DNA from: Rosenbergiella sp. YN46
GTDB taxonomy: Bacteria; Pseudomonadota; Gammaproteobacteria; Enterobacterales; Enterobacteriaceae
Strand: one strand, 5' to 3'
NCBI GenBank assembly: GCA_036620675.1
Contig: JAZHEE010000010.1
DNA length: 32,000 nucleotides
Part shown: positions 1,397 to 22,348 of the stretch, in pieces
Layout: each line of letters begins with the position of its first letter
Position numbering within the stretch: the stretch's first letter is position 1
Notes under the pieces: generated by a model
What the model was told of the DNA's origin: nothing
Databases searched by the model: none
The model's input: only the letters and a program-made list of their open reading frames with translations
Made by a program: the position numbers and the translations under genes

Positions 1397-2710
<1,314 letters not shown>

Positions 2711-2736
2711 TCGTCTGCAATAATTAATCTCTGAAG

Positions 2737-2767
2737 GCCCCGGCAGGAAACTGCCGGGGCTTTTTTT
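2737..2767 (+). terminator. Rho-independent terminator of eno
   Basis: A 10-bp GC stem gccccggcag / ctgccggggc with a gaaa loop is followed by seven T residues (2761-2767). It starts 27 nt after the eno stop. Confidence 0.9.
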
Positions 2768-2781
2768 ATGGCTTGTTGCGG

Positions 2782-3087
2782 ATTAGCGAGGAGTGTTCGA
2801 AAACGGATGGAATATGAACACGTTGGAGAAAGTTCCGTTCACTTTTAGTAAGTGCTTCTCTGTTAATTCGGAACACGTGAATGGGCCAGGGGGGCTCAGT
2901 CGCCACCCCCCTGGCGACCCGGGCTCCCCGGCGGTAAAAAACGCCGCTGACGCGGTTCCCTGCGCTAATTCCCGTCGGGCTTATCGGCACGGGCGAGAGT
3001 CGCCGTCCCTGGCGACCTCGCCCTGTCATGACTTCCCTGTCACTCCTCCGGCCCTCCGTGAACGCTTCGGCATTTTTTAAGCCGGGA
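2782..3087 (+). repeat. Left arm of a ~700-bp imperfect palindrome; structured non-coding element, copy 1 (read on + strand)
   Basis: It aligns block by block with the reverse complement of 3183-3477. Shared blocks are attagcg, gaatatga, ggagaa, ttccgttcac, gtgaa, cagggg..cccctg, ccct-cgctaattcccgtc, gccctgtc, gaacgct and cggga. Internal hairpins are at 2835-2884, 2886-2914 and 2971-2993. A long-range helix pairs 2928-2945 with 3069-3085. Confidence 0.8.
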
Positions 3088-3182
3088 CATAACCCCCTCA
3101 TCGCTTCAGTCGGGTTGCCTGAATGTGACTAGCGCTATCCCTTTCTGTAAATACAAGGGCAGAAGAGTAAAGATGGTGACAC

Positions 3183-3477
3183 TCCCGACCTAAAAATCGC
3201 CGGAGCGTTCGCGGTTGCCAGGGTCAGCCAGACAGGGCGTCTGGCTGAGGGTATACGGCACACGGACGTGCCGTTATACCCGACCCGTCCGGCGGACGGG
3301 AATTAGCGGAGGGCACCCGAAGGGCGATTTTTACGTCGGAAAGCCGGGTTGTCAGGGGCGGCATTTGAGCCCCTGACACGTTCACCGGCGCCGGTATTCA
3401 CATATTAAAAATCACCCTAAGGTGAACGGAATCTTCTCCGACACATCATATTCATTCAAAATCAGGCTCACGCTAAT
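3183..3477 (-). repeat. Right arm of the imperfect palindrome; structured non-coding element, copy 2 (read on - strand)
   Basis: This is a diverged reverse-complement copy of 2782-3087. Equivalent hairpins are at 3379-3429, 3351-3377 and 3284-3300. A long-range helix pairs 3185-3201 with 3323-3339 (16 of 17 bp). There are extra perfect hairpins at 3249-3282 (gggtata(a)cggcac / gtgccgtataccc) and 3223-3247 (tcagccagac / gtctggctga). Confidence 0.8.
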
Positions 3478-3494: not shown

Positions 3495-4319
3495 TTACAG
3501 CAGCAGTGGCAGCGTTGCGCTGGCCGTTTGCTGGCTGAGCTCGGCATAGTGCTCATCAATGGCGATAAGGGACATCGCCAGCAGTTCTACCAGCAGCATT
3601 ACGCTGATTTTGGCGTTCAACGCGCCGCCGCTTAGCGGACTTTCTGGCTTGGCCGCCACCAGCAGAATATCGCTTAACGACGCCAGCGGGCTGGAAGGGG
3701 TGTTACTGAGCGCCAGCACCTTCACGCCGCGCTTGCGGGCCAGCTTCACCACGTGCAGCAGATCGCGGGTGGATCCCGAACTGGAGATCGCCACTGCTAA
3801 GTCTTCCTGGTTGAGCGTTGCCGCGCTCATCGCCGCGCGATGCATATCGCTGTACTGTTGCGCGCTTTTGCCGAAGCGCAGCAGCTTATACTGAAGATAA
3901 TCTCCGGGGATAGCGCTTGCCGCAACGCCGTATATCTGCACCGAACGCGCCTGATGCAGCGCCTGCGCCGCCGCTTTCAGCATCTGGCGATCCAGTAGTT
4001 TCGCCGTATCCTGTAGCGCCTGTACTGACTCTTCCACCACTCGATCTATCGCATCTCCCGCCTGGCGCGGTGTGGTCTGGTGCTGAATATCCAACGCCAG
4101 CGCCATTTTAAATTCGTTATAGCCTTTGCATCCCAGCGTCCGGCACAGCCGGGTGACGCTTGCTTCGCTGGTTTCGCTTTCCCGCGCCAGCTCGGTAATG
4201 GTCAGGTAGAGCACGCTGGCGGGGGCGTTTAACACGAACTCTCCCAGCTTCTGCTGGGTTGGGCTGTATCCGGATACGCTCTGCCGCAGCCTGAGCAGCA
4301 GGTTTTCATGTTGTGACAT
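3495..4319 (-). CDS. MurR/RpiR-family transcriptional regulator (N-terminal HTH, C-terminal SIS domain), 274 aa
   Basis: The N-terminus (SPTQQKLGEFVLNAPASVLYLTITELARESETSEASVTRLCRTLGCKGYNEFK) is a typical RpiR-type HTH. The C-terminal part (VQIYGVAASA...AISSSGSTRDLL) resembles a SIS sugar-phosphate-binding domain. It is divergent from a PTS gene. Confidence 0.85.
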   Translation of the reverse strand: MSQHENLLLRLRQSVSGYSPTQQKLGEFVLNAPASVLYLTITELARESETSEASVTRLCRTLGCKGYNEFKMALALDIQHQTTPRQAGDAIDRVVEESVQALQDTAKLLDRQMLKAAAQALHQARSVQIYGVAASAIPGDYLQYKLLRFGKSAQQYSDMHRAAMSAATLNQEDLAVAISSSGSTRDLLHVVKLARKRGVKVLALSNTPSSPLASLSDILLVAAKPESPLSGGALNAKISVMLLVELLAMSLIAIDEHYAELSQQTASATLPLLL

Positions 4320-12658: not shown

Positions 12659-15370
12659 TCATGCCAGATGTCCGCCGGTCAGCCCAAAACGTTTGCTGTA
12701 ATAAACAGCCTCCCCTTGTGGCGATACCAGAAGTATCTGGGCTATCGGGCGGTGTTGCTGATTACGGAATTGTTCCAGGGACTCATCGTCGGGGAGGTGG
12801 AAGCCGACGGACTTTTTCTGCCACCAGGAAAGGCGTACCGAAAGGCGGCTTTTCTCCCAGCGGTAATCTCCGTCGTTGACTATCGGATGTAAGCGATGAT
12901 CCTCATCCTGCCAGGCAAGATAAACATCAACACTTTCTTCCCCCAGCCGGGTGGAAAATTCGCGCTCGTTGTCCCATAAAAAATCGCTGGACTCCCGGTG
13001 ATATCCTTTATCGCGCTGTAACAGATTCTGTGTTGCGACGGCGCGTTGACTAAGCACTTTGCCAAAATTCATATCTGATATGGTCTGTAAACCGGGCGGT
13101 GCGATAATCTCTTGTTCGTAGACGCCATCGACCAGTGTTCGGGCATATTCCGGCATACGGATTTCCCCATGCTTTTTGAGCAATGCCTGGGTACGCCACA
13201 GGCAGGCGTGGTCGGGATAGACATAACCGGTACCGCGTAACGCTTCTCCCAGCCATCCCGATTTTGCCTCAGGTTGCCATTCAGGTGCCAGAATATGTAA
13301 CACCGGCGGTTGGCGTTCGTCAGGCAGAGAGTCTTTAGGTTGCCCCTGCGCATTGCGAATATGGCGCTGTAATCGGCCCGCTCGTTGGATCAGTAAATCA
13401 ATGGGAGCCAGATCGGAAATCATCCAGTCAAAATCCAGATCCAGACTCTGTTCGACAACCTGGGTGGCGATAAGCACCTTACCGCGACGCTCCTCTGCTG
13501 GTGTACTTTTACCAAACCAGCTCAGCGTCTTTTCCTCTATATTCAGACGATCGACAAAGGCAAAACGGCTGTGAAACAGCAACAAATCCTGAGGAGGTAT
13601 CCCGCCATCATTGAGTAGTTGCTGAAATATATCCAGAGCATCATCGACGGTATTACGGACCCAACAAATGCACTGTCCGGACTCCACGGCCTGCCTGATG
13701 ACCTTTAGTGCATCGGTACGTGTATGCAGCCAGTTAATGGACACGGTGCGCTCTACTTCCGGGCGTGTTTCCAGCGCTTCTTCGTCCAGACCTGTAGCAG
13801 ATAGATGGCTTAGCCAAGGATAACCTGCATCATATCGGGCGTCTGTTGCGGTGAATTCGGCACCGCTATTAAAGGCGTTGAGCAATTTTTCCCGCAGAGA
13901 AGCCGGTAGCGTTGCACTAAGAATAATGGCGCTACCGCCCTGGGCCGCATGAAAGCGGAGTAGTCCTTCCAGTAATTTCACCATATAGCTGTCGTAGGCG
14001 TGCACTTCGTCCAACAATAAAATCTTATCGCGCATGCCTAACAGACGAAGTGACTGATGGCGAAAGGGCATTACCGCCATCAGCAATTGATCGAGCGTCC
14101 CGACGCCGACTTCGGCCAGTAACGCTTTTTTACGGGAATCAGCAAACCAGGCGTGGCATTCAGCCTGGGCACTGGCATCGTTAGCGGCATATCTATCAGC
14201 CGTGCCATCGTCAGGTTGCCACACTGACTCCCTGAACGATGATGACATCTCTCTGCCGCCGTGGGCCAGGATAAGCGAAGGTCTGGTCTGTGGTGAAAAG
14301 AGCGCACGGTAGGCTTTAGCCAGTCGGCTGTACATGGCGTTAGCTGTCGCCATCGTTGGCAGCCCGACGTACAGGCCTGCTCCTTTTCCGGCAGACATCA
14401 GACGGTGGGTCAGGATCACTGCCGCTTCGGTTTTGCCTGCACCGGTTACATCTTCCAGAATAATAAGCTGCGGACCGGGGGCAGTGATATCCAGCGTTGT
14501 CGCCCGTTGTTGGAGTGGTGTCAGATTATGGATAAATGGGAATAGCGTCTGATGCCCGCTATACGGACTATGCTGTGACAGCGGGGGAATCCGCTGAATT
14601 GCCCGCTGCGCGTTTTCGCATGCGATAGGCCAATACTGGTCCAGTGGCATAGGCTCGCTGAGAAGAGGGAATTGCGTTTCGTCTGAACCCATCCAGTCGG
14701 CTAGTGTCATTAGCGCGGCGAAGAACCAGCTATCCAGCCTGAGCTGTTTCTTACCTGCTTTGCGCTGCCATTCCTGAGGTAGGGTAAAGGGAAATAGTCG
14801 GCTTAATTCCTCCAGATAGTGGCCCGCAGCCGCGATATCGGTATCGTCAAAAGCCAGTGAGCATTTGCTGGTTAGCGTATCGGGTGGGATCCCGTGGTGT
14901 CCTGTACTGACGGATATCCAGATATCGAGGGCACTTTTCAACCGGGTACGTTGTTCCCGAGGGATGGCGGGGAGTAGATCGTTACTGCCACTACACCAAC
15001 CTTCAATCAATTTTTGCCATAAATAAAAGCCTAACGAGTCGTGACGCTCCAGGGCCGCAATACCGCTTACCGGAGGAACCAGAGGGGATTTGGGGAAAGG
15101 AGCGTATTGCTGAAATCCCCGAGCGAATTTTCCAATGTCATGACTGGCAAAAAGCCAGGCAATCCAGTTTTCTGCATCCTTGCCTCTGATCCCGTATTTG
15201 CTTAAAACGTCCTGAATACCAAACAGGTTACTTTTAACGATGGCATACCCGCATGCGGCGACATCCAGACAGTGGTAAGGCAGCAGGTGATAGGGGGCAA
15301 GGGTATCATCGCCCGAACGATTAGTTTTTCCCCAATAGCGTAGAAAGTTCGGAACTGTTGTAGCTGTCAT
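12659..15370 (-). CDS. cas3: Type I-E CRISPR-associated nuclease/helicase Cas3, 903 aa
   Basis: It has an N-terminal HD domain (YHCLDVAA...SHDIGKF), a helicase Walker A motif (DVTGAGKTEAA), a DEVH box (LLLDEVHAYD) and a later motif (ATQVVEQSLDLDFD). It lies next to the Cascade genes and is clearly more AT-rich than cysH. Confidence 0.95.
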   Translation of the reverse strand: MTATTVPNFLRYWGKTNRSGDDTLAPYHLLPYHCLDVAACGYAIVKSNLFGIQDVLSKYGIRGKDAENWIAWLFASHDIGKFARGFQQYAPFPKSPLVPPVSGIAALERHDSLGFYLWQKLIEGWCSGSNDLLPAIPREQRTRLKSALDIWISVSTGHHGIPPDTLTSKCSLAFDDTDIAAAGHYLEELSRLFPFTLPQEWQRKAGKKQLRLDSWFFAALMTLADWMGSDETQFPLLSEPMPLDQYWPIACENAQRAIQRIPPLSQHSPYSGHQTLFPFIHNLTPLQQRATTLDITAPGPQLIILEDVTGAGKTEAAVILTHRLMSAGKGAGLYVGLPTMATANAMYSRLAKAYRALFSPQTRPSLILAHGGREMSSSFRESVWQPDDGTADRYAANDASAQAECHAWFADSRKKALLAEVGVGTLDQLLMAVMPFRHQSLRLLGMRDKILLLDEVHAYDSYMVKLLEGLLRFHAAQGGSAIILSATLPASLREKLLNAFNSGAEFTATDARYDAGYPWLSHLSATGLDEEALETRPEVERTVSINWLHTRTDALKVIRQAVESGQCICWVRNTVDDALDIFQQLLNDGGIPPQDLLLFHSRFAFVDRLNIEEKTLSWFGKSTPAEERRGKVLIATQVVEQSLDLDFDWMISDLAPIDLLIQRAGRLQRHIRNAQGQPKDSLPDERQPPVLHILAPEWQPEAKSGWLGEALRGTGYVYPDHACLWRTQALLKKHGEIRMPEYARTLVDGVYEQEIIAPPGLQTISDMNFGKVLSQRAVATQNLLQRDKGYHRESSDFLWDNEREFSTRLGEESVDVYLAWQDEDHRLHPIVNDGDYRWEKSRLSVRLSWWQKKSVGFHLPDDESLEQFRNQQHRPIAQILLVSPQGEAVYYSKRFGLTGGHLA

Positions 15371-15444
15371 CCTTTTGTCCCTTAAGCCATAGATATAATA
15401 GGGATTCTAGTAGGGGATGGTGCGGGGATACAGTATTTTGAGAA

Positions 15445-15473
15445 GGGGTTATCCCCGCTTACGCGGGGAACAT
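15445..15473 (-). repeat. Orphan (solitary) degenerate type I-E CRISPR repeat, in cas3 orientation
   Basis: The minus strand reads atgttccccgcgtaagcggggataacccc, against the array consensus atgttccccgcggcagcggggataaaccg. That is 25 of 29 identical. Two mismatches are in the loop and two in the 3' handle, and the 6-bp stem is intact. Confidence 0.8.
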
Positions 15474-15564
15474 ATTCAATGGTGGTTTCTTTCACGCTTA
15501 CCCATGAGGAAATGATGATGTTGGTTGCATTTCTTTTGTATGGGTTAAGGCGTATCTAGCGTCC

Positions 15565-15588
15565 GGCAGGTCCCTAAAGGGACCTGCC
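15565..15588 (+). other. Perfect 10-bp hairpin immediately upstream of the cse1 ribosome-binding site
   Basis: Stem ggcaggtccc / gggacctgcc with loop taaa. It is followed by ttacaggagagactga and the ATG at 15605. Confidence 0.6.
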
Positions 15589-15604
15589 TTACAGGAGAGA
15601 CTGA

Positions 15605-17164
15605 ATGGATTTAACTAAAGAAAAATGGCTTCCCGTTATCTTCTCCAGTGGTGAAAAAACCAGAATTTCTCTGTCCGGGCTGTTGGACGATAGCATTCAG
15701 GATGTCGCCTGGCCCCGGCCCGATTTTCAGGGGGCGGCATGGCAAATGCTGATTGGTATCCTGCAATGTTGTGTTGCGCCCGAAGATGAGGACGACTGGG
15801 AGGAGGTATGGCATGAGGGCATTGAGGCCGAAGCATGGTCACAGGGGCTGGCTTCCCTTTCTCCGGCGTTACAGTTTGGCGAACAGAAACCTTCCTTTCT
15901 GCAAAGTTTTGAACCGTTGGATAGCGACAACGGTGTGATTTCCGGACTGCTTATTGATGCTCCCGGCGGCAACGCCCTGAAACTTAATAAAGACCATTTC
16001 GTTAAACGCGGCGGCGTAGAACAAATCTGCCCTCACTGTGCGCTGATGGCATTGTTTACTGTACAGACTAACTCCCCGGCAGGCGGTGCAGGTTATCGGG
16101 TGGGAATGCGCGGCGGCGGGCCATTAACGACCCTGGTGATCCCCCGGGAAGAAGATGAGTATCCTCTGTGGAAGAAGCTGTGGCTCAATGTGTTGCCCCA
16201 GGATAGCGCGCCGATACCAGCGCAGTATCCAGTTATCTTCCCCTGGTTGGCGCCGACTAAAACCAGTGAAAAAGCCGGTAACCTGGTGACGCCGGAAAAT
16301 GCTCATCCCTTACAGGCATATTGGGGAATGCCACGCCGTATTGAACTGGATTTTTCCCACACCCGTTCTGGTAGCTGCGATTTGTGTGGTGAATACCATG
16401 AGCAACTGCTGCTGGAAATGCGTAGCAAAAATTACGGCATTCAGTACGATGGTTGGTTACACCCCTTTTCCCCTTATCGCCAGGCGTTGAAAGATCCTTC
16501 AGCCCCCTGGCTGGCATTGAAAGGTCAGCCAGGGGGACTGGCCTATAAAGACTGGCTGGGGTTGTTACTTCAGGGAGAGGATAAATACAATAAGATGCAA
16601 CCTGCGAAGGTGGTTCGTACTGCCAGACGGGAGATTCCTTTAAGTCTGTGGTGTTTTGCCTGGGATATGGACAACGCTAAGGCGCGTTGTTGGTATCAGC
16701 ATCGTATTCCATTGTTTAGCGTTTCTTGCCCTGAAAGCTTTGTTGCTGTGTTACAGCTTGTGCTGTTGCTGGCATCCGATGCGTTATCGTTGCTGAGATA
16801 CGCGCTAAAAAGTGCTCGTTTTGAAAATCCTAAGGAAGCCAAAGTCGATTTCAGTATGGTCGATATCGCTTTTTGGCAGGAGACTGAACCGGCTTTCCGA
16901 ATGTTACTGAAAGTGTTGGTCAGGGAACCTCGCACGACCCATCCCGATACTCGCCAGGCGCTACGCTGCTGGGAAACCAGCCTGTATCACTATCTGTTCA
17001 AAGTTTTCGATCGCGATGAGCTAACCAACCCCGATAGTCCGGACGAGATTCTGCTGCGTCAACTGGAGGCCCGACGGATGTTGGAAAGTAGCTATCGTAA
17101 GCAAAAATCCCGCAAGGATTTCCTGGCGCTGACTAAAGAAGAGAAGGAATCCCTCCATGTCTAA
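15605..17164 (+). CDS. casA: Cascade large subunit Cse1/CasA (Cas8e), 519 aa
   Basis: It is in the first position of the Cascade operon. The N-terminus (KEKWLPV) resembles CasA, and size and synteny fit (cse1-cse2-cas7-cas5-cas6e). The sequence is divergent from K-12 CasA. Confidence 0.9.
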   Translation: MDLTKEKWLPVIFSSGEKTRISLSGLLDDSIQDVAWPRPDFQGAAWQMLIGILQCCVAPEDEDDWEEVWHEGIEAEAWSQGLASLSPALQFGEQKPSFLQSFEPLDSDNGVISGLLIDAPGGNALKLNKDHFVKRGGVEQICPHCALMALFTVQTNSPAGGAGYRVGMRGGGPLTTLVIPREEDEYPLWKKLWLNVLPQDSAPIPAQYPVIFPWLAPTKTSEKAGNLVTPENAHPLQAYWGMPRRIELDFSHTRSGSCDLCGEYHEQLLLEMRSKNYGIQYDGWLHPFSPYRQALKDPSAPWLALKGQPGGLAYKDWLGLLLQGEDKYNKMQPAKVVRTARREIPLSLWCFAWDMDNAKARCWYQHRIPLFSVSCPESFVAVLQLVLLLASDALSLLRYALKSARFENPKEAKVDFSMVDIAFWQETEPAFRMLLKVLVREPRTTHPDTRQALRCWETSLYHYLFKVFDRDELTNPDSPDEILLRQLEARRMLESSYRKQKSRKDFLALTKEEKESLHV

Positions 17165-17759
17165 CGATAACACCGCAAGCGAGCGGAGAATCACCCATCC
17201 AGAGGCGCAAGAAGCGCTGCTGGAATGGTTTAAAATACTGTCCGAACGCTATATCAATAAAAATGATCGAAAGATTAATGGTCGAGCCTGGCGGGCTGAA
17301 CTAAAACGCATGGAGCCTCCTTATGGCGTAATGATGTGTGAAGGCTATAGCGATCTCCGCCAGCGGTTATCGCCGCATATGTCGCTGGCGCCGATTCATG
17401 AAATGGCTCTGGCGGTATTTGCAAGCGTTGCCGTTTATATAAAAAACTATAACGGAAAGGGAAGTTTTGCCGCTCAGTTGGGTGAAAAACTTCGCAGTGA
17501 ACGTCCCTGTTTAAGCAAGCTTCGCTTCGAACGTTTGCAAAAGGCAACCGATCCCGAAACTTTCTGCAACTTGTTAATCAGTGCCGTAAAAATTCGTGGT
17601 ACTGAAGGGGTAAATATTATCTCTCTGGCCGACAGTATTTTTTTGTGGATGGAAGAGTGGCTACGGCGCGAAGAGCATCAGCCGGAAAACAGCCACCCGT
17701 TTGAACGTAACCGTATTCGCTGGGCTAATGAGTACCTCTCTACGGCGCGAACCAAATAA
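17157..17759 (+). CDS. casB: Cascade small subunit Cse2/CasB, 200 aa
   Basis: It is second in the operon and overlaps the cse1 stop by 8 nt. It is a basic helical protein of appropriate size. The assignment rests mainly on position. Confidence 0.85.
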   Translation: MSNDNTASERRITHPEAQEALLEWFKILSERYINKNDRKINGRAWRAELKRMEPPYGVMMCEGYSDLRQRLSPHMSLAPIHEMALAVFASVAVYIKNYNGKGSFAAQLGEKLRSERPCLSKLRFERLQKATDPETFCNLLISAVKIRGTEGVNIISLADSIFLWMEEWLRREEHQPENSHPFERNRIRWANEYLSTARTK

Positions 17760-17780
17760 TGGACTTTGGAAGGATTAATC

Positions 17781-18839
17781 ATGACTACTTTTATTCAACT
17801 GCATTTATTAACCGCATACGCCCCTGCCAACCTGAACCGCGACGAGTCCGGTAGACCAAAAACAGCTTATATGGGGGGCGTGGAGCGTCTGCGGGTGTCG
17901 TCGCAAAGTCTGAAGCGGGCCTGGCGAGTATCGGAAACCTTTGAAGCGGCGATGGATGGTTTTATGGGAAAACGTACGCGTCGTATTGGTGTGGATTATG
18001 TTTATAAGCCGATGACGGTCGCCGGTGTTGCAGAGAAAACGGCAAAGAGCGCGGCGGAAAAAATTGCGGAACAATTCGGTAAACGTAAAAACGATAAAAA
18101 TACCTCGACCGAAAAAAATCTCGAAATCGAACAAATCGTTCACGTCAGCCACCATGAAATCGAACTGATTAATCAACTGGTAAAAACGCTGATTGAGGAG
18201 CAGCGCGTACCGAAGGATGAAGAGGTCAAACTGCTAAGAAAAGAGCAGCGCAGCGTGGATATGGCGTTGTTTGGTCGCATGCTGGCGTCGTCGCCTGAAT
18301 TTAACGTTGAGGCCGCCTGTCAGGTTTCGCATGCGCTGGGGGTAAGTGCTGTTACCGTCGAAGACGATTTTTTTACTGCCGTTGATGATTTGAATAATAA
18401 AGAGCAGGATGCTGGTTCTGGCCATATGGGGGAGCAGAGTTTTGCGTCGGCGCTGTTTTACACCTACATCTGCATTAGTCGCGATCTGCTGGTTGAAAAC
18501 CTGGGCGGCAATGAGGAGCTGGCGAGACGCGCTATCGCTGCCTTGACCGAAACTGCTCTGACGGTATCGCCAACGGGTAAACAAAATAGCTTTGCTTCCC
18601 GGGCTTATGCCTCTTATGCGTTGGCTGAAATCGGTAAAAAGCAGCCTCGTTCACTGGCCGCAGCCTTCTTTCAACCAATTCGTGAGCAGAACCAGATTTT
18701 GGCGGCTATTGACGCTCTGAAGGCGCAGCGGGAGAGTTTTAACAGCGTTTACGGCGACTGTAGTGACGATTACAACGAGCTGAACGTGGTGGAAAGCAAA
18801 GGGAAGCTGACGGAACTACTGGCCTTTGTCAGCCAGTAA
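17781..18839 (+). CDS. casC: Cascade backbone subunit Cas7/CasC (Cse4), 352 aa
   Basis: The translation MTTFIQLHLLTAYAPANLNRDESGRPKTAYMGGVERLRVSSQSLKRAWR parallels E. coli CasC (..LNRDD....GG..R.RISSQSLKRA.R). The motif FTAVDDL is also conserved. I chose the ATG at 17781, which has a Shine-Dalgarno sequence (aagga) 7 nt upstream, over the TTG at 17766. Confidence 0.93.
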   Translation: MTTFIQLHLLTAYAPANLNRDESGRPKTAYMGGVERLRVSSQSLKRAWRVSETFEAAMDGFMGKRTRRIGVDYVYKPMTVAGVAEKTAKSAAEKIAEQFGKRKNDKNTSTEKNLEIEQIVHVSHHEIELINQLVKTLIEEQRVPKDEEVKLLRKEQRSVDMALFGRMLASSPEFNVEAACQVSHALGVSAVTVEDDFFTAVDDLNNKEQDAGSGHMGEQSFASALFYTYICISRDLLVENLGGNEELARRAIAALTETALTVSPTGKQNSFASRAYASYALAEIGKKQPRSLAAAFFQPIREQNQILAAIDALKAQRESFNSVYGDCSDDYNELNVVESKGKLTELLAFVSQ

Positions 18840-18848
18840 GGATTGATT

Positions 18849-19574
18849 ATGAAGGAATATCTGATTTTTCAGCTCTATTCGCCGCTCGCTTCCTGGGGAG
18901 AAGAAGCGTCGGGTGAAATCCGTCATTCGGCTGTGGCACCCACGCGTTCTGCTTTACTGGGATTATTGGCGGCTGCTTTAGGGATTCGTCGGGAAGATGA
19001 AGAGCGGCTAAATGACTTCAACCAGAACTATCATCTGGCCGTACATGCGTTGGCTACCCGGGAACGCTGGTTGCGGGATTATCACACTGTTAGCGCCCCG
19101 CGTGAAAACAAGAAGCTCCATTACTATACTCGTCGTGATGAGCTTTATCTGGCGCCGGACGAGGTCGGTACGTTAATTTCGCAGAGAGAATATCGCTGCG
19201 ATGGTTACTGGCATGTGGCGGTGAGCCTTACACCAGGTGCGCCATATTCTCTTCAGGATCTGAGAAATGCGCTGCTGGAGCCTCATTTTCCTCTCTATTT
19301 AGGCCGCAAATCTTGTCCGCTGGCCCTGCCACTGGCACCTCGTTTAATGAAGGGAAAGCTAAAGGATCTATTTATTCAAATCGCTCAGGAAATGTCTGTG
19401 CCGGAACTGGCAGGTTTTATCCGTCAGGAAGGTATGTGTTACTGGGATGACCCTGATGAAAGTAGTCTTTCCTGGCAGCAGAAACTGCATAGCCCCCACC
19501 AACCAACGAGTCGCAAGCGTTGGCAGTTCGGTAGCTACACCCGTTTTTGTGGTTCGCTACAGGGGAGGGAATAA
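18849..19574 (+). CDS. casD: Cascade subunit Cas5e/CasD, 241 aa
   Basis: The translation MKEYLIFQLYSPLASWGE...RSALLGLLAAALGIRRED...YLGRKSCPL parallels E. coli CasD (YLILRLAGPMQAWG...RSGLLGLLGACLGI...YLGRRSCPL). The ATG at 18849 follows a Shine-Dalgarno sequence (aagga). Confidence 0.93.
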   Translation: MKEYLIFQLYSPLASWGEEASGEIRHSAVAPTRSALLGLLAAALGIRREDEERLNDFNQNYHLAVHALATRERWLRDYHTVSAPRENKKLHYYTRRDELYLAPDEVGTLISQREYRCDGYWHVAVSLTPGAPYSLQDLRNALLEPHFPLYLGRKSCPLALPLAPRLMKGKLKDLFIQIAQEMSVPELAGFIRQEGMCYWDDPDESSLSWQQKLHSPHQPTSRKRWQFGSYTRFCGSLQGRE

Positions 19575-20277
19575 TGTATTTGTCGCGTATTCAGCTCCGG
19601 TTCAATAACCTGAAACCAGAGATGTTGGAAAAATGGCATTCAGCCACTTCCTATGCCAGCCATCAGTGGTTATGGCAGCTATTCCCGGAACAGGAATCCC
19701 GATCGTTTCTTTTCCGCCTGGAGGAACATGGGCGATTCTTTATGTTATCGACTACGCAGCCATTAACGCAGCACGCTCTGTTTATCGTTGAAACTAAGCT
19801 TTTTCAGCCTCAATTGGAAAAGGGGATGTTACTTGATTTTCAGCTACGAGCTAATCCTGTCGTTACACGGAATAACAAACGTAACGATGTCATGATGGAT
19901 GCGAAGTATCAGGCGAAGGCGCAAGGAATTCCCCGTGAGCAGTGGTGGGAGCGGCAACGACAGGCGGCACAGAGTTGGCTGGAAAGACAGGGGGAGCGGC
20001 ATGGTTTTCGTCTGGTCTCGCCACACGTTGACGACTTTGCTCTTTGGGCTGGTGACGCGTTCCAGGACGAACAGGAACGCGGTGGCTGCGTAATAGCATA
20101 CCAACAACATCGATGTATTCGTCGACAGCAGGAAAAACCTATCACTTTTAGTAGCGTCGATTTTTCGGGAACGCTTTGTGTGAGTGATGTCAGGGGGTTT
20201 AACCAGGCCCTGATGTCTGGACTGGGAAAAAGTAAGGCATTGGGTTGTGGAATGTTGATGGTAAAAAGGAAACGTTG

Positions 20278-20278
<1 letters not shown>
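19574..20278 (+). CDS. casE: CRISPR RNA endoribonuclease Cas6e/CasE, 234 aa
   Basis: It starts MYLSRIQL, against E. coli CasE MYLSKVII. It also has the FQLRANP and GLGKSKALGCGML motifs (E. coli GIGPAKSMGCGLL). The start overlaps the cas5 stop (TAATG), so the tracked ORF start at 19547 is an upstream extension. Confidence 0.93.
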
Positions 20279-21491
<1,213 letters not shown>

Positions 21492-21587
21492 GTTATCAAC
21501 TTTTTGATGTTTCTTGATTGTTGGTTAAAAGTTGGTAGAAAGATGCATCCGGAAAAAGCTCTTTAATAACAAGTATATATTTTTAGT
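21492..21587 (+). promoter_or_regulatory. CRISPR leader
   Basis: A 96-bp AT-rich segment between the cas2 stop and the first repeat (…aataacaagtatatatttttagt). This is the same position as the E. coli CRISPR-1 leader. The repeat variants are confined to the far end of the array, which fits leader-proximal acquisition. Confidence 0.8.
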
Positions 21588-22348
21588 ATGTTCCCCGCGG
21601 CAGCGGGGATAAACCGCATTGGCCGTGCCCGGGCCGCGTGGGGCATCAATGTTCCCCGCGGCAGCGGGGATAAACCGCGCAACGTCAGGAATCAGCAGGC
21701 GCCGGATGGATGTTCCCCGCGGCAGCGGGGATAAACCGGGAATGGCAGGAACTCCAGGCATGACGGAAAAATGTTCCCCGCGGCAGCGGGGATAAACCGC
21801 AATAACTGGTCGACCAGATAACTGGCATCGCATGTTCCCCGCGGCAGCGGGGATAAACCGTCATTCCTGGTTCCTGATATTGCAGGACGTTAATGTTCCC
21901 CGCGGCAGCGGGGATAAACCGACATGATAATTAGATTGACGGATGCGGTATCTATGTTCCCCGCGGCAGCGGGGATAAACCGACAGGCGTTTACAAAAAT
22001 AAATTCCTTTTGCTATGTTCCCCGCGGCAGCGGGGATAAACCGGCGTATCTTGTGGCTCAAACGGCACATTTTCGATGTTCCCCGCGGCAGCGGGGATAA
22101 ACCGCGACCGTGAGCGCATCCGGGCGCAAGCTGAACATGTTCCCCGCGGCAGCGGGGATAAACCGAATGACACTGGACAGTAACTCGTTAGATTCTGATG
22201 TTCCCCACGGCAGCGGGGATAAACCGCGTCGCCTTTCCAGAGTTCGTAACCAATGCTGATGTTCCCCGCGGCAGCGGGGATAAACTGGTTTCTGCCGCAC
22301 GCAGGGCGTTATCAGGCACATGTTCCCCGCGGCAGCGGGGATAAACCG
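21588..22348 (+). CRISPR. Type I-E CRISPR array, 13 repeats of 29 nt and 12 spacers of 32 nt
   Basis: The consensus repeat is ATGTTCCCCGCGGCAGCGGGGATAAACCG, with an exact 61-nt period. Repeat n starts at 21588+61(n-1). Repeat 11 (22198) carries a G-to-A change in the stem (ccccacgg). Repeat 12 (22259) has aaactg in place of aaaccg. The array is co-oriented with cas1-cas2. Confidence 0.98.

Follow-up and report, generated by a model that had tools for sequence, protein, structure and literature searches.

Two tail-to-tail copies of a probable dispersed, structured repeat in the eno-rpiR spacer of Rosenbergiella sp. YN46

In Rosenbergiella sp. YN46, a 725 bp spacer separates the end of eno, with its terminator, from a convergent gene for a MurR/RpiR-family regulator. 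The spacer lies near the start of a 32,000-nucleotide stretch of DNA (GenBank assembly GCA_036620675.1, contig JAZHEE010000010.1), which we refer to as the window. A first-pass annotation, made from the letters alone, described in it an imperfect palindrome of about 700 bp composed of two copies of a structured non-coding element. It offered three identities for that element: a paired small RNA (sRNA) locus or one derived from a 3' untranslated region (3' UTR), a relic of a type I toxin-antitoxin system, or something resembling a MITE, or miniature inverted-repeat transposable element. Here we report that the spacer probably contains two independently diverged copies, arranged tail to tail, of a non-coding, non-autonomous repeat that is dispersed in the Enterobacteriaceae. 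Our verdict on the family is that of an unnamed structured repeat of MITE/YPAL/TwoAYGGAY-like type.

The inverted anatomy of the palindrome was borne out. Aligned locally with the reverse complement of the right arm, the left arm scores 175, against 33 ± 6 for 200 shuffles, and a repeat search of the window returns the same inverted blocks for both arms. The proposed limits were right in giving two arms and wrong in ending the left one too early: the left copy extends to about 3156, its tail occupying most of what had been taken for a 95-nucleotide centre. Read on the strand whose hairpin loops contain GGA (the GGA strand), the left copy occupies 2782-3156 on the minus strand, with a head at 2782-2834, a main body and a tail at 3088-3156. 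The right copy occupies 3157-3477 on the plus strand, with a short tail at 3157-3182, a main body and a head at 3430-3477. A first seed profile matched the arms at 2782-3087 and 3477-3182. In nhmmer searches with the family profile, the left copy is matched from 3156 to 2793 (217.5 bits, E = 1.8e-66, profile positions 52-402) and the right copy from 3100 to 3476 (170.2 bits), the latter alignment being weak before about 3157-3180. The window holds no further copies beyond the two arms. The arms are about 63% identical to one another; the closest other copy reaches at most 72% identity with the left arm and at most 65% with the right. Because they are so dissimilar and are the most divergent members among the copies compared, the two arms are not a recent local duplication.

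Comparison with relatives reveals that the pair is an insertion. On the left, eno (1412-2710, plus strand) follows a partial pyrG at the start of the window and is succeeded by an intrinsic terminator at 2734-2768 (plus strand), whose stem and T-run are evident in the sequence and were also called as an inverted repeat. On the right, the boundary of the insertion is the regulator gene (3495-4319, minus strand), here called rpiR, an open reading frame (ORF) with Pfam HTH_6 and SIS domains and recognizable homologues. A search with the RpiR protein of the window found the exact protein in only a few contigs; the next match is 91% identical, followed by proteins from Enterobacter and other genera at 82% or less. 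In the relative with the 91% identical protein, the eno-rpiR spacer measures 64 nucleotides and consists of the same terminator and 8 more nucleotides. The corresponding spacer in Enterobacter hormaechei is 52 nucleotides long, and the closest relative (L121), whose site is empty, has the eno terminator hairpin as well. Since the site is empty in these relatives (52-64 nucleotides), the roughly 690 nucleotides between the terminator T-run and the rpiR stop codon are inserted DNA.

Related sequences are found at many other places. Using a profile built from four seeds to search 116 fetched loci, we obtained 142 matches, of which about 85 span the full length. The genera represented are Enterobacter, Leclercia, Lelliottia, Phytobacter, Silvania, Yokenella and Escherichia. 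A degenerate pattern covering the P6-P5-junction region described below, applied to one genome per species, finds at least 109 loci in at least nine genera: the same seven, Huaxiibacter and Kosakonia. At least 12 copies, about 75-96% identical, reside in a single genome of Phytobacter ursingii, where similarity ends about 95 nucleotides past the core profile. There is no gene inside these copies or inside any other. Related sequence is present in 4047 of 5426 complete E. coli genomes, mostly in the asmA-yegH spacer among the matches sampled, and 544 genomes have the element after proX; copy number in this species is low, at one to three places per genome. Annotation passes over these sequences: none of 50 sampled E. 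coli matches has an annotated feature beneath it, and the curated K-12 record is blank in the asmA-yegH spacer. Literature searches returned no paper naming this Enterobacteriaceae repeat family and nothing relevant on an sRNA in that spacer. The element is thus not specific to this locus. Its many dispersed copies in related genomes, some of them bearing flanking duplications, largely amount to what the first-pass annotation had named as the sign of an ordinary MITE or REP-type repeat.

We also looked for vehicles of dispersal. The degenerate pattern has five matches in viral contigs, and its only matches labelled as plasmids are records of 1.4-4.9 Mb, which are the size of chromosomes; neither set is evidence of a phage or plasmid vector. 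An exact 26-mer from the right arm had no match in metagenome contigs. A scaffold of 403 nucleotides in an assembly of Levilactobacillus tujiorum (L107, NZ_JAAXLK010000056.1) consists almost entirely of one full-length copy (214 bits) and is probably a contaminant contig.

The full element measures about 375-400 bp, that is, about 290 nucleotides plus a tail of about 100, with a G+C content of 0.56-0.69. It comprises a head containing two helices, P6 and P5, a core of about 160 nucleotides, and the tail. Within the core, a long-range helix of 13-17 bp (P1) closes a junction bearing two hairpins, HpA and HpB, with terminal loops of the form A-N-GGA-Y. The left core (2926-3085, minus strand) contains P1 (2928-2945 with 3069-3085), P2, HpA (3028-3043, loop AGGGAA) and HpB (2991-3023, loop AGGGAC), and the minimum free energy (MFE) fold gives the same helices. 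In the right core (3185-3341, plus strand) the MFE fold likewise contains P1 (3185-3201 with 3323-3339), P2, HpA (3224-3248, loop AGGGCG) and HpB (3249-3281, loop ACGGAC). The family covariance model, R1, scores 120.5 bits on the left core and 116.1 bits on the right, both copies being part of its training set. P5 is a GC hairpin, visible in the left arm at 2886-2914 (minus strand) from the sequence, where it has an 11-nucleotide loop, and in the right arm at 3351-3377 (plus strand) from the sequence, the MFE fold and the family alignment. The P6 stem, CCGTTCAC/GTGAACGG, is present in both arms, at 2835-2884 (minus strand), where CGTTCAC and GTGAACG enclose a variable loop of about 35 nucleotides, and at 3379-3429 (plus strand).

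Several lines of evidence concern whether this fold matters. Both strands of both arms fold better than dinucleotide shuffles, with z-scores from -4.0 to -8.5. Of the helices listed in the first-pass annotation, the long-range helix, the GC hairpin with its 11-nucleotide loop and the CCGTTCAC/GTGAACGG stem lie where they had been placed, and all three recur in an alignment of 38 copies (A1, clustered at 90%, aligned with MAFFT and not fitted to a model). The cccgt...acggg hairpin and the attagcg/cgctaat pairing turned out to be peculiar to the window copies. Under a nine-helix structure, A1 has 91.8% of its cells paired, a share that is 32-40% once the partners are slid. Both members vary in 22 pairs, where the slid controls give 4-8, and in 500 shuffles the observed values were never reached. 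In an alignment of 101 distinct cores to a covariance model built from them, which by construction leans toward the modelled structure and strand, both members vary in 30 of the 46 pairs, where the comparison gives 10-16.

The helices differ in what they contribute. For P1, 13 pairs were modelled (the window arms have 17-18); four of these change on both sides, and 95-98% of the cells in the helix are paired. P5 is a 10-bp stem with 100% of cells paired, and one of its positions shows four Watson-Crick pair types. P6 gives no covariation evidence because its stem is invariant in 38 of 38 copies. The two compensatory changes that had been noticed in the long helix, G-C to A-U and A-U to U-A, are real; each is found once among the 101 distinct copies, in the window arms only. 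In the core, 24 of 25 distinct HpA loops and 33 of 35 distinct HpB loops retain GGA over stems that covary, the sequence between the flanking A and Y being GGGA, UGGA, AGGA or CGGA. Judged from these comparisons, which support the proposed covariation with many more homologues aligned, the fold is under selection.

As to strand, we have a tentative preference for the one bearing GGA. Wobble pairs are rare: G-U and A-C combinations in the unfitted alignment number 15 and 12 of about 2100 cells, which is uninformative; in the model-fitted alignment the counts are 88 and 29 on the GGA strand, and the excess comes mostly from two columns. Family cores fold 7-11 kcal/mol better on the GGA strand, as is expected of a G-rich strand anyway. 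The symmetric Watson-Crick pairing is what a constraint acting on DNA, or one indifferent to strand, would give.

Some copies are expanded or broken. In a subfamily from Leclercia, Silvania and some Enterobacter (L072 6279-6509, L065, L096, L048, L076, L010 3906-4137, L080 and L014), an additional 75-88 nucleotides or so beside the small hairpin contain a third hairpin, CCCC-AGGGAU-GGGG. In L013, L041 and L047 the copy is broken within the HpA loop, and in the first two of these the interrupting sequences are REP-like palindromes (REP, repetitive extragenic palindromic). The K-12 asmA-yegH copy (L002 2433-2609) lacks the two GGA hairpins when compared with L003. It breaks at ATCGGGTA (ATTGGGTA in K-12). 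The full-length allele has two occurrences of this sequence, which makes a deletion between short direct repeats likely. At the window locus itself, three independent short-read assemblies containing the exact rpiR gene (L005, L006 and L007) all stop at base 3348, between the right-arm core and P5. The common end suggests either a repeat boundary or a drop in coverage at the structured core.

The first-pass annotation could match the element to no Rfam family known to it, yet one does match the right arm. A cmscan of the whole window gives a single match above its gathering score of 43 bits: TwoAYGGAY (RF01731) scores 46.5 bits over its full model on the plus strand at 3180-3344, with E = 1.1e-4 for the window. 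TwoAYGGAY is an RNA motif described by Weinberg et al. in 2010 (PMC2864571). With a relaxed scan, the two-hairpin module of the left arm also gives a partial match (2986-3049, minus strand, 25.7 bits), as does an E. coli copy, on the same strand (29.1 bits); these partial matches span model positions 43/46 to 112/114. Both are below threshold, and at 18 other loci holding family copies TwoAYGGAY has no match at the gathering score. The right arm thus formally belongs to TwoAYGGAY, and the family as a whole is a possible member. The match and the conserved GGA loops also reverse the orientation given to the arms by the first-pass annotation, in which each ran with its neighbouring gene, eno or rpiR. 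Both lie on the opposite strand, and RNAs made from the arms would diverge from the centre.

TwoAYGGAY and the family share a long closing helix around two hairpins with GGA in their terminal loops. The loops of the motif read A-Y-GGA-Y; those of the family are more often A-G-GGA-U, the Y before GGA being usually G, and the family's P5, P6, small hairpin and tail are not in the Rfam model. A further likeness is that the original gammaproteobacterial seeds were several copies from one Psychromonas genome with conserved flanks, which suggests that TwoAYGGAY itself rides on a repeat. Membership in this Rfam family explains little, because the function of the motif is not known.

Of the three identities first proposed, the MITE-like element came closest, although the 17-bp repeat thought to be terminal is P1, which is internal: it lies about 140 nucleotides from the head end and about 70-100 from the tail end, and no inverted repeats were found at the true ends of the element. 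In this respect the family resembles YPAL, or RU-2, described as miniature insertion sequences of Yersinia (De Gregorio 2006, as cited by Delihas, PMC2229807, PMC2759123). In Delihas's account (PMC2229807), YPAL is a non-coding, GC-rich, dispersed intergenic repeat whose inverted repeats are internal rather than terminal; its target duplications vary from 3 to 26 bp and lie at or beside sites of dyad symmetry. These duplications match the flanking repeats of 16-33 nucleotides, each holding a hairpin, that we describe below, and the insertion in the window is beside the eno terminator. When folded, YPAL too places two hairpins, whose loops are AAGGAU and AUGGAU, inside a long stem. The differences are considerable. 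YPAL is 168 bp long and has no P5, P6 or tail module. Searching with nhmmer gives no match between the family and YPAL, and R1 does not match the core of a Yersinia YPAL copy (L119), giving only a 7-bit partial alignment; a plasmid variant (L120) scores 12.5 bits (E = 0.11). Rfam, moreover, lists YPAL as Ysr224, on the opposite strand, with no TwoAYGGAY match listed even at E values up to 10. We reject homology at the level of sequence and model and keep YPAL as an architectural analogue.

The plasmid variant merits a separate remark. A YPAL/RU-2 relative, about 75% identical, is present at L120 1501-1664 and in 15 further plasmid records (of 19 matching records, 16 lie in the 60-80% identity band). 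The plasmids come from E. coli, Klebsiella, Citrobacter and other genera, and most are conjugative. L120, typed as mobilizable, carries its copy near an IS26 copy, and the copy scores as Rfam Ysr224.

REP units, with their bacterial interspersed mosaic elements (BIMEs), and ERIC (IRU) sequences are likewise structured extragenic repeats that concentrate at gene 3' ends and often cluster as mosaics. The family is far longer and more complex than a REP of 35-40 nucleotides, and neither a GTAG/CGTC-type tag nor an associated RAYT gene was identified for it. It has no sequence similarity to ERIC, and its low copy number in E. coli sets it apart from both.

The places where copies sit suggest how they might have arrived. 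Among full copies, 49 of 75 lie between convergent genes and 6 of 75 between divergent genes; in tandem contexts, orientation relative to the flanking genes follows no rule (7 against 13). Most copies are beside terminators or REP-like hairpins, and many abut REP-like palindromes of the form CCCTCTCCC...GGGAGAGGG. After proX in E. coli, a single spot is taken either by the element or by REP/BIME units, one or two of them. Six copies have direct flanking repeats specific to themselves, 16-33 nucleotides long, each of which holds a complete hairpin: L043 (33 nucleotides, 31 of 33 identical), L093 (21, perfect), L019 (21, not REP-like), L095 (17), L051 (16) and L087 (16). Where two copies lie inverted within 1.5 kb in our data set, all nine pairs are tail to tail and none head to head, with gaps of 61-1040 nucleotides. 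Three loci (L017 7746-7833, L059 4764-4851 and L010 3525-3611) have an above-threshold match to the Rfam C4 antisense RNA (RF01695) no more than a few hundred bases from family copies, and in L010 and L059 the match falls between tail-to-tail partners.

Membership of a dispersed family, insertion at this site, the fold and its covariation are shown by the data; how the element moves, whether it is transcribed and what it does for the host are matters of inference. We would propose that the family settles beside or inside DNA hairpins, whether terminators, REP-like palindromes or the tails of other copies, and that insertion sometimes duplicates the whole target hairpin. In the window, the elements would have landed in the 8 nucleotides separating the stop codon of rpiR from the eno terminator that the two genes shared, and the pair may have arisen through insertion of one copy at the hairpin-rich tail of its partner, either next to that tail or within it. 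The fold could be kept for propagation, or for tolerance, as single-stranded nucleic acid. Its effect at this locus is most likely passive, that of a very stable structured spacer between convergent genes. The insertion would part rpiR from a terminator that it formerly shared, and it may supply a substitute. On the minus strand of the right P6 loop, about 70 nucleotides past the rpiR stop codon, a weak terminator-like hairpin at 3425-3412 (TCACCTTAGGGTGA followed by TTTTTAATAT) may act as the replacement.

A number of observations count against a mobile repeat of this kind. Many of the copies tallied by context are orthologues of one another in related species, which means that the context counts cannot be treated as independent. 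The mean flank score is 9.2 for a copy's own flanks and 8.1 for crossed ones, with own higher in 37 of 78; since these means barely differ, flank duplication is a feature of a subset of copies. No fixed-length target-site duplication was found among the flanking repeats, and for the family as a whole a transposase, terminal inverted repeats and a clean target-site duplication could not be defined. At the window site, comparison with the empty site reveals no recognizable target duplication; GTGCGCTG, which flanks the insertion on both sides, is a doubtful echo that we do not count as one. For the source organism, our copy count covers the window only and consists of these two copies. The proposal for insertion does not account for an arrangement that is always tail to tail. 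Finally, the near-invariant GGA loops over covarying stems and the third hairpin of one subfamily look like selection for a trans-acting ligand, which a purely selfish reading does not explain.

These last features are the strength of a different explanation: that each arm is a working sRNA gene of the TwoAYGGAY type, read on the GGA strand outward from the centre, whose GGA hairpins would bind dimeric CsrA. The copies would serve as CsrA sponges or bring neighbouring transcripts under Csr control, and dispersal would be the spread of a gene family, in which respect the explanation overlaps with a dispersed repeat. We consider it possible but unlikely. In its favour, the right arm passes the TwoAYGGAY threshold on the GGA strand, the loops keep GGA while their stems covary, and the gain of the third hairpin fits as well. 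CsrA binding by TwoAYGGAY has been predicted by the authors of RMfam (PMC4333381). By sequence, the family has paired short hairpins with GGA in the loop at a spacing that a CsrA dimer could bridge, as in CsrB and RsmZ (the binding motif is described in PMC4383904), and the strand signals point the same way, namely the G-U excess in the fitted alignment and the folding advantage of 7 kcal/mol. The commonest HpB sequence is CUACAGGGAUGUAG. It is close to the CsrA consensus from in vitro selection (SELEX), RUACARGGAUGU.

Other evidence does not fit a gene. A consensus scan yielded a single sigma-70-like promoter site, inside the right arm but not on the GGA strand, along with two terminator-like hairpins, both weak. 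A conserved promoter or terminator did not emerge, and conserved -35 and -10 boxes could not be defined by eye in the tail. The paired sRNA locus, or one derived from a 3' UTR, of the first-pass annotation thus lacks promoter support, and the eno terminator lies between eno and the left arm. The strand signals are open to the objections raised above, namely the near parity of the unfitted counts and the composition of a G-rich strand, and the 18 other loci fall short of the TwoAYGGAY gathering score. Single copies are dispensable, as the truncated K-12 copy and the copies interrupted by REP insertions indicate. YPAL, the sole related element with a recorded transcript, is listed as Ysr224 on the opposite strand. 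The family also differs from CsrB and RsmZ in having no promoter found, in being multi-copy and mobile-looking, and in offering two or three sites per element, where CsrB has many; CsrA binding is only a candidate function for it. The GGA hairpins may nevertheless be CsrA-binding sites, a possibility worth testing; our literature searches found nothing relevant linking CsrA with miniature repeats. One could go further and regard the family, together with TwoAYGGAY and YPAL by virtue of architecture, as a class of mobile DNA with a conserved cargo of two or three high-affinity CsrA-binding hairpins, spreading by a hairpin-targeted process that duplicates variable lengths of target. If this were true, insertions would connect the 3' UTRs of their neighbours to the Csr regulon, or CsrA would be titrated by the copies jointly. 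We think this quite doubtful, and we know of no bacterial transposase family that explains such spread.

Two other explanations fare worse. An inverted duplication of one resident sequence on the spot, for example by snap-back or template switching, followed by decay, would explain why the arms are adjacent and inverted with a short centre, and tail to tail is the sole inverted arrangement seen, as a hairpin-type duplication would give. We regard it as very improbable: the left arm is nearer to copies in other genera than to its partner, other tail-to-tail pairs are separated by gaps of up to 1040 nucleotides, the partners in L071 belong to different 90% clusters, and in relatives the site is fully empty rather than occupied by a single copy. 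A decayed type I toxin-antitoxin locus or a hidden gene for a small protein is scarcely tenable. The first-pass annotation saw no credible ORF in the spacer, and there are in fact ORFs of 95 and 111 amino acids across the left arm and of 53 amino acids across the right, while open stretches of 70-99 amino acids (median) are common in the family. None of the ORFs in the spacer matches Pfam, and only 2 of 1204 indels between family copies are multiples of three, so no reading frame or small ORF is conserved, including any that a toxin-antitoxin relic would have left. The open stretches are the chance yield of GC-rich palindromic sequence. A dispersed, non-autonomous repeat present in two copies therefore continues to be the reading that we favour.

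Two further features of the window concern its surroundings. The terminator region at 2692-2768 scores 25.8 bits as Rfam Spot 42, well under the threshold of 80; the terminator hairpin alone drives the match, and we do not regard the identity as real. Beyond rpiR lie, in order, genes for a phosphotransferase system (PTS) EIICB component, nanE, queE, cysJIH and a type I-E CRISPR-Cas system. The latter is complete (12659-22285) and includes cas3 (12659-15370, minus strand), cse1 (15605-17164), cas1 (20245-21195) and an array at about 21588-22285 with a period of 61 and the repeat GTTCCCCGCGGCAGCGGGGATAAACCG. A gene for an M28 peptidase (iap-like) follows the array, and the layout next to cysJIH is as in E. 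coli.

Within the window, the structure offers no evidence for a dedicated regulator of eno or rpiR. What had been an anonymous palindrome becomes a recognizable object, a member of a repeat family that genome annotation has ignored. The element also matters for assembly: three short-read assemblies, made independently, come to an end within it. Although TwoAYGGAY dates from 2010, it has had no function assigned; among the gammaproteobacteria the motif now looks like the core of repeats that are dispersed and seek hairpins. This opens a route to its study through variation in copy number, filled and empty sites, and CsrA binding.

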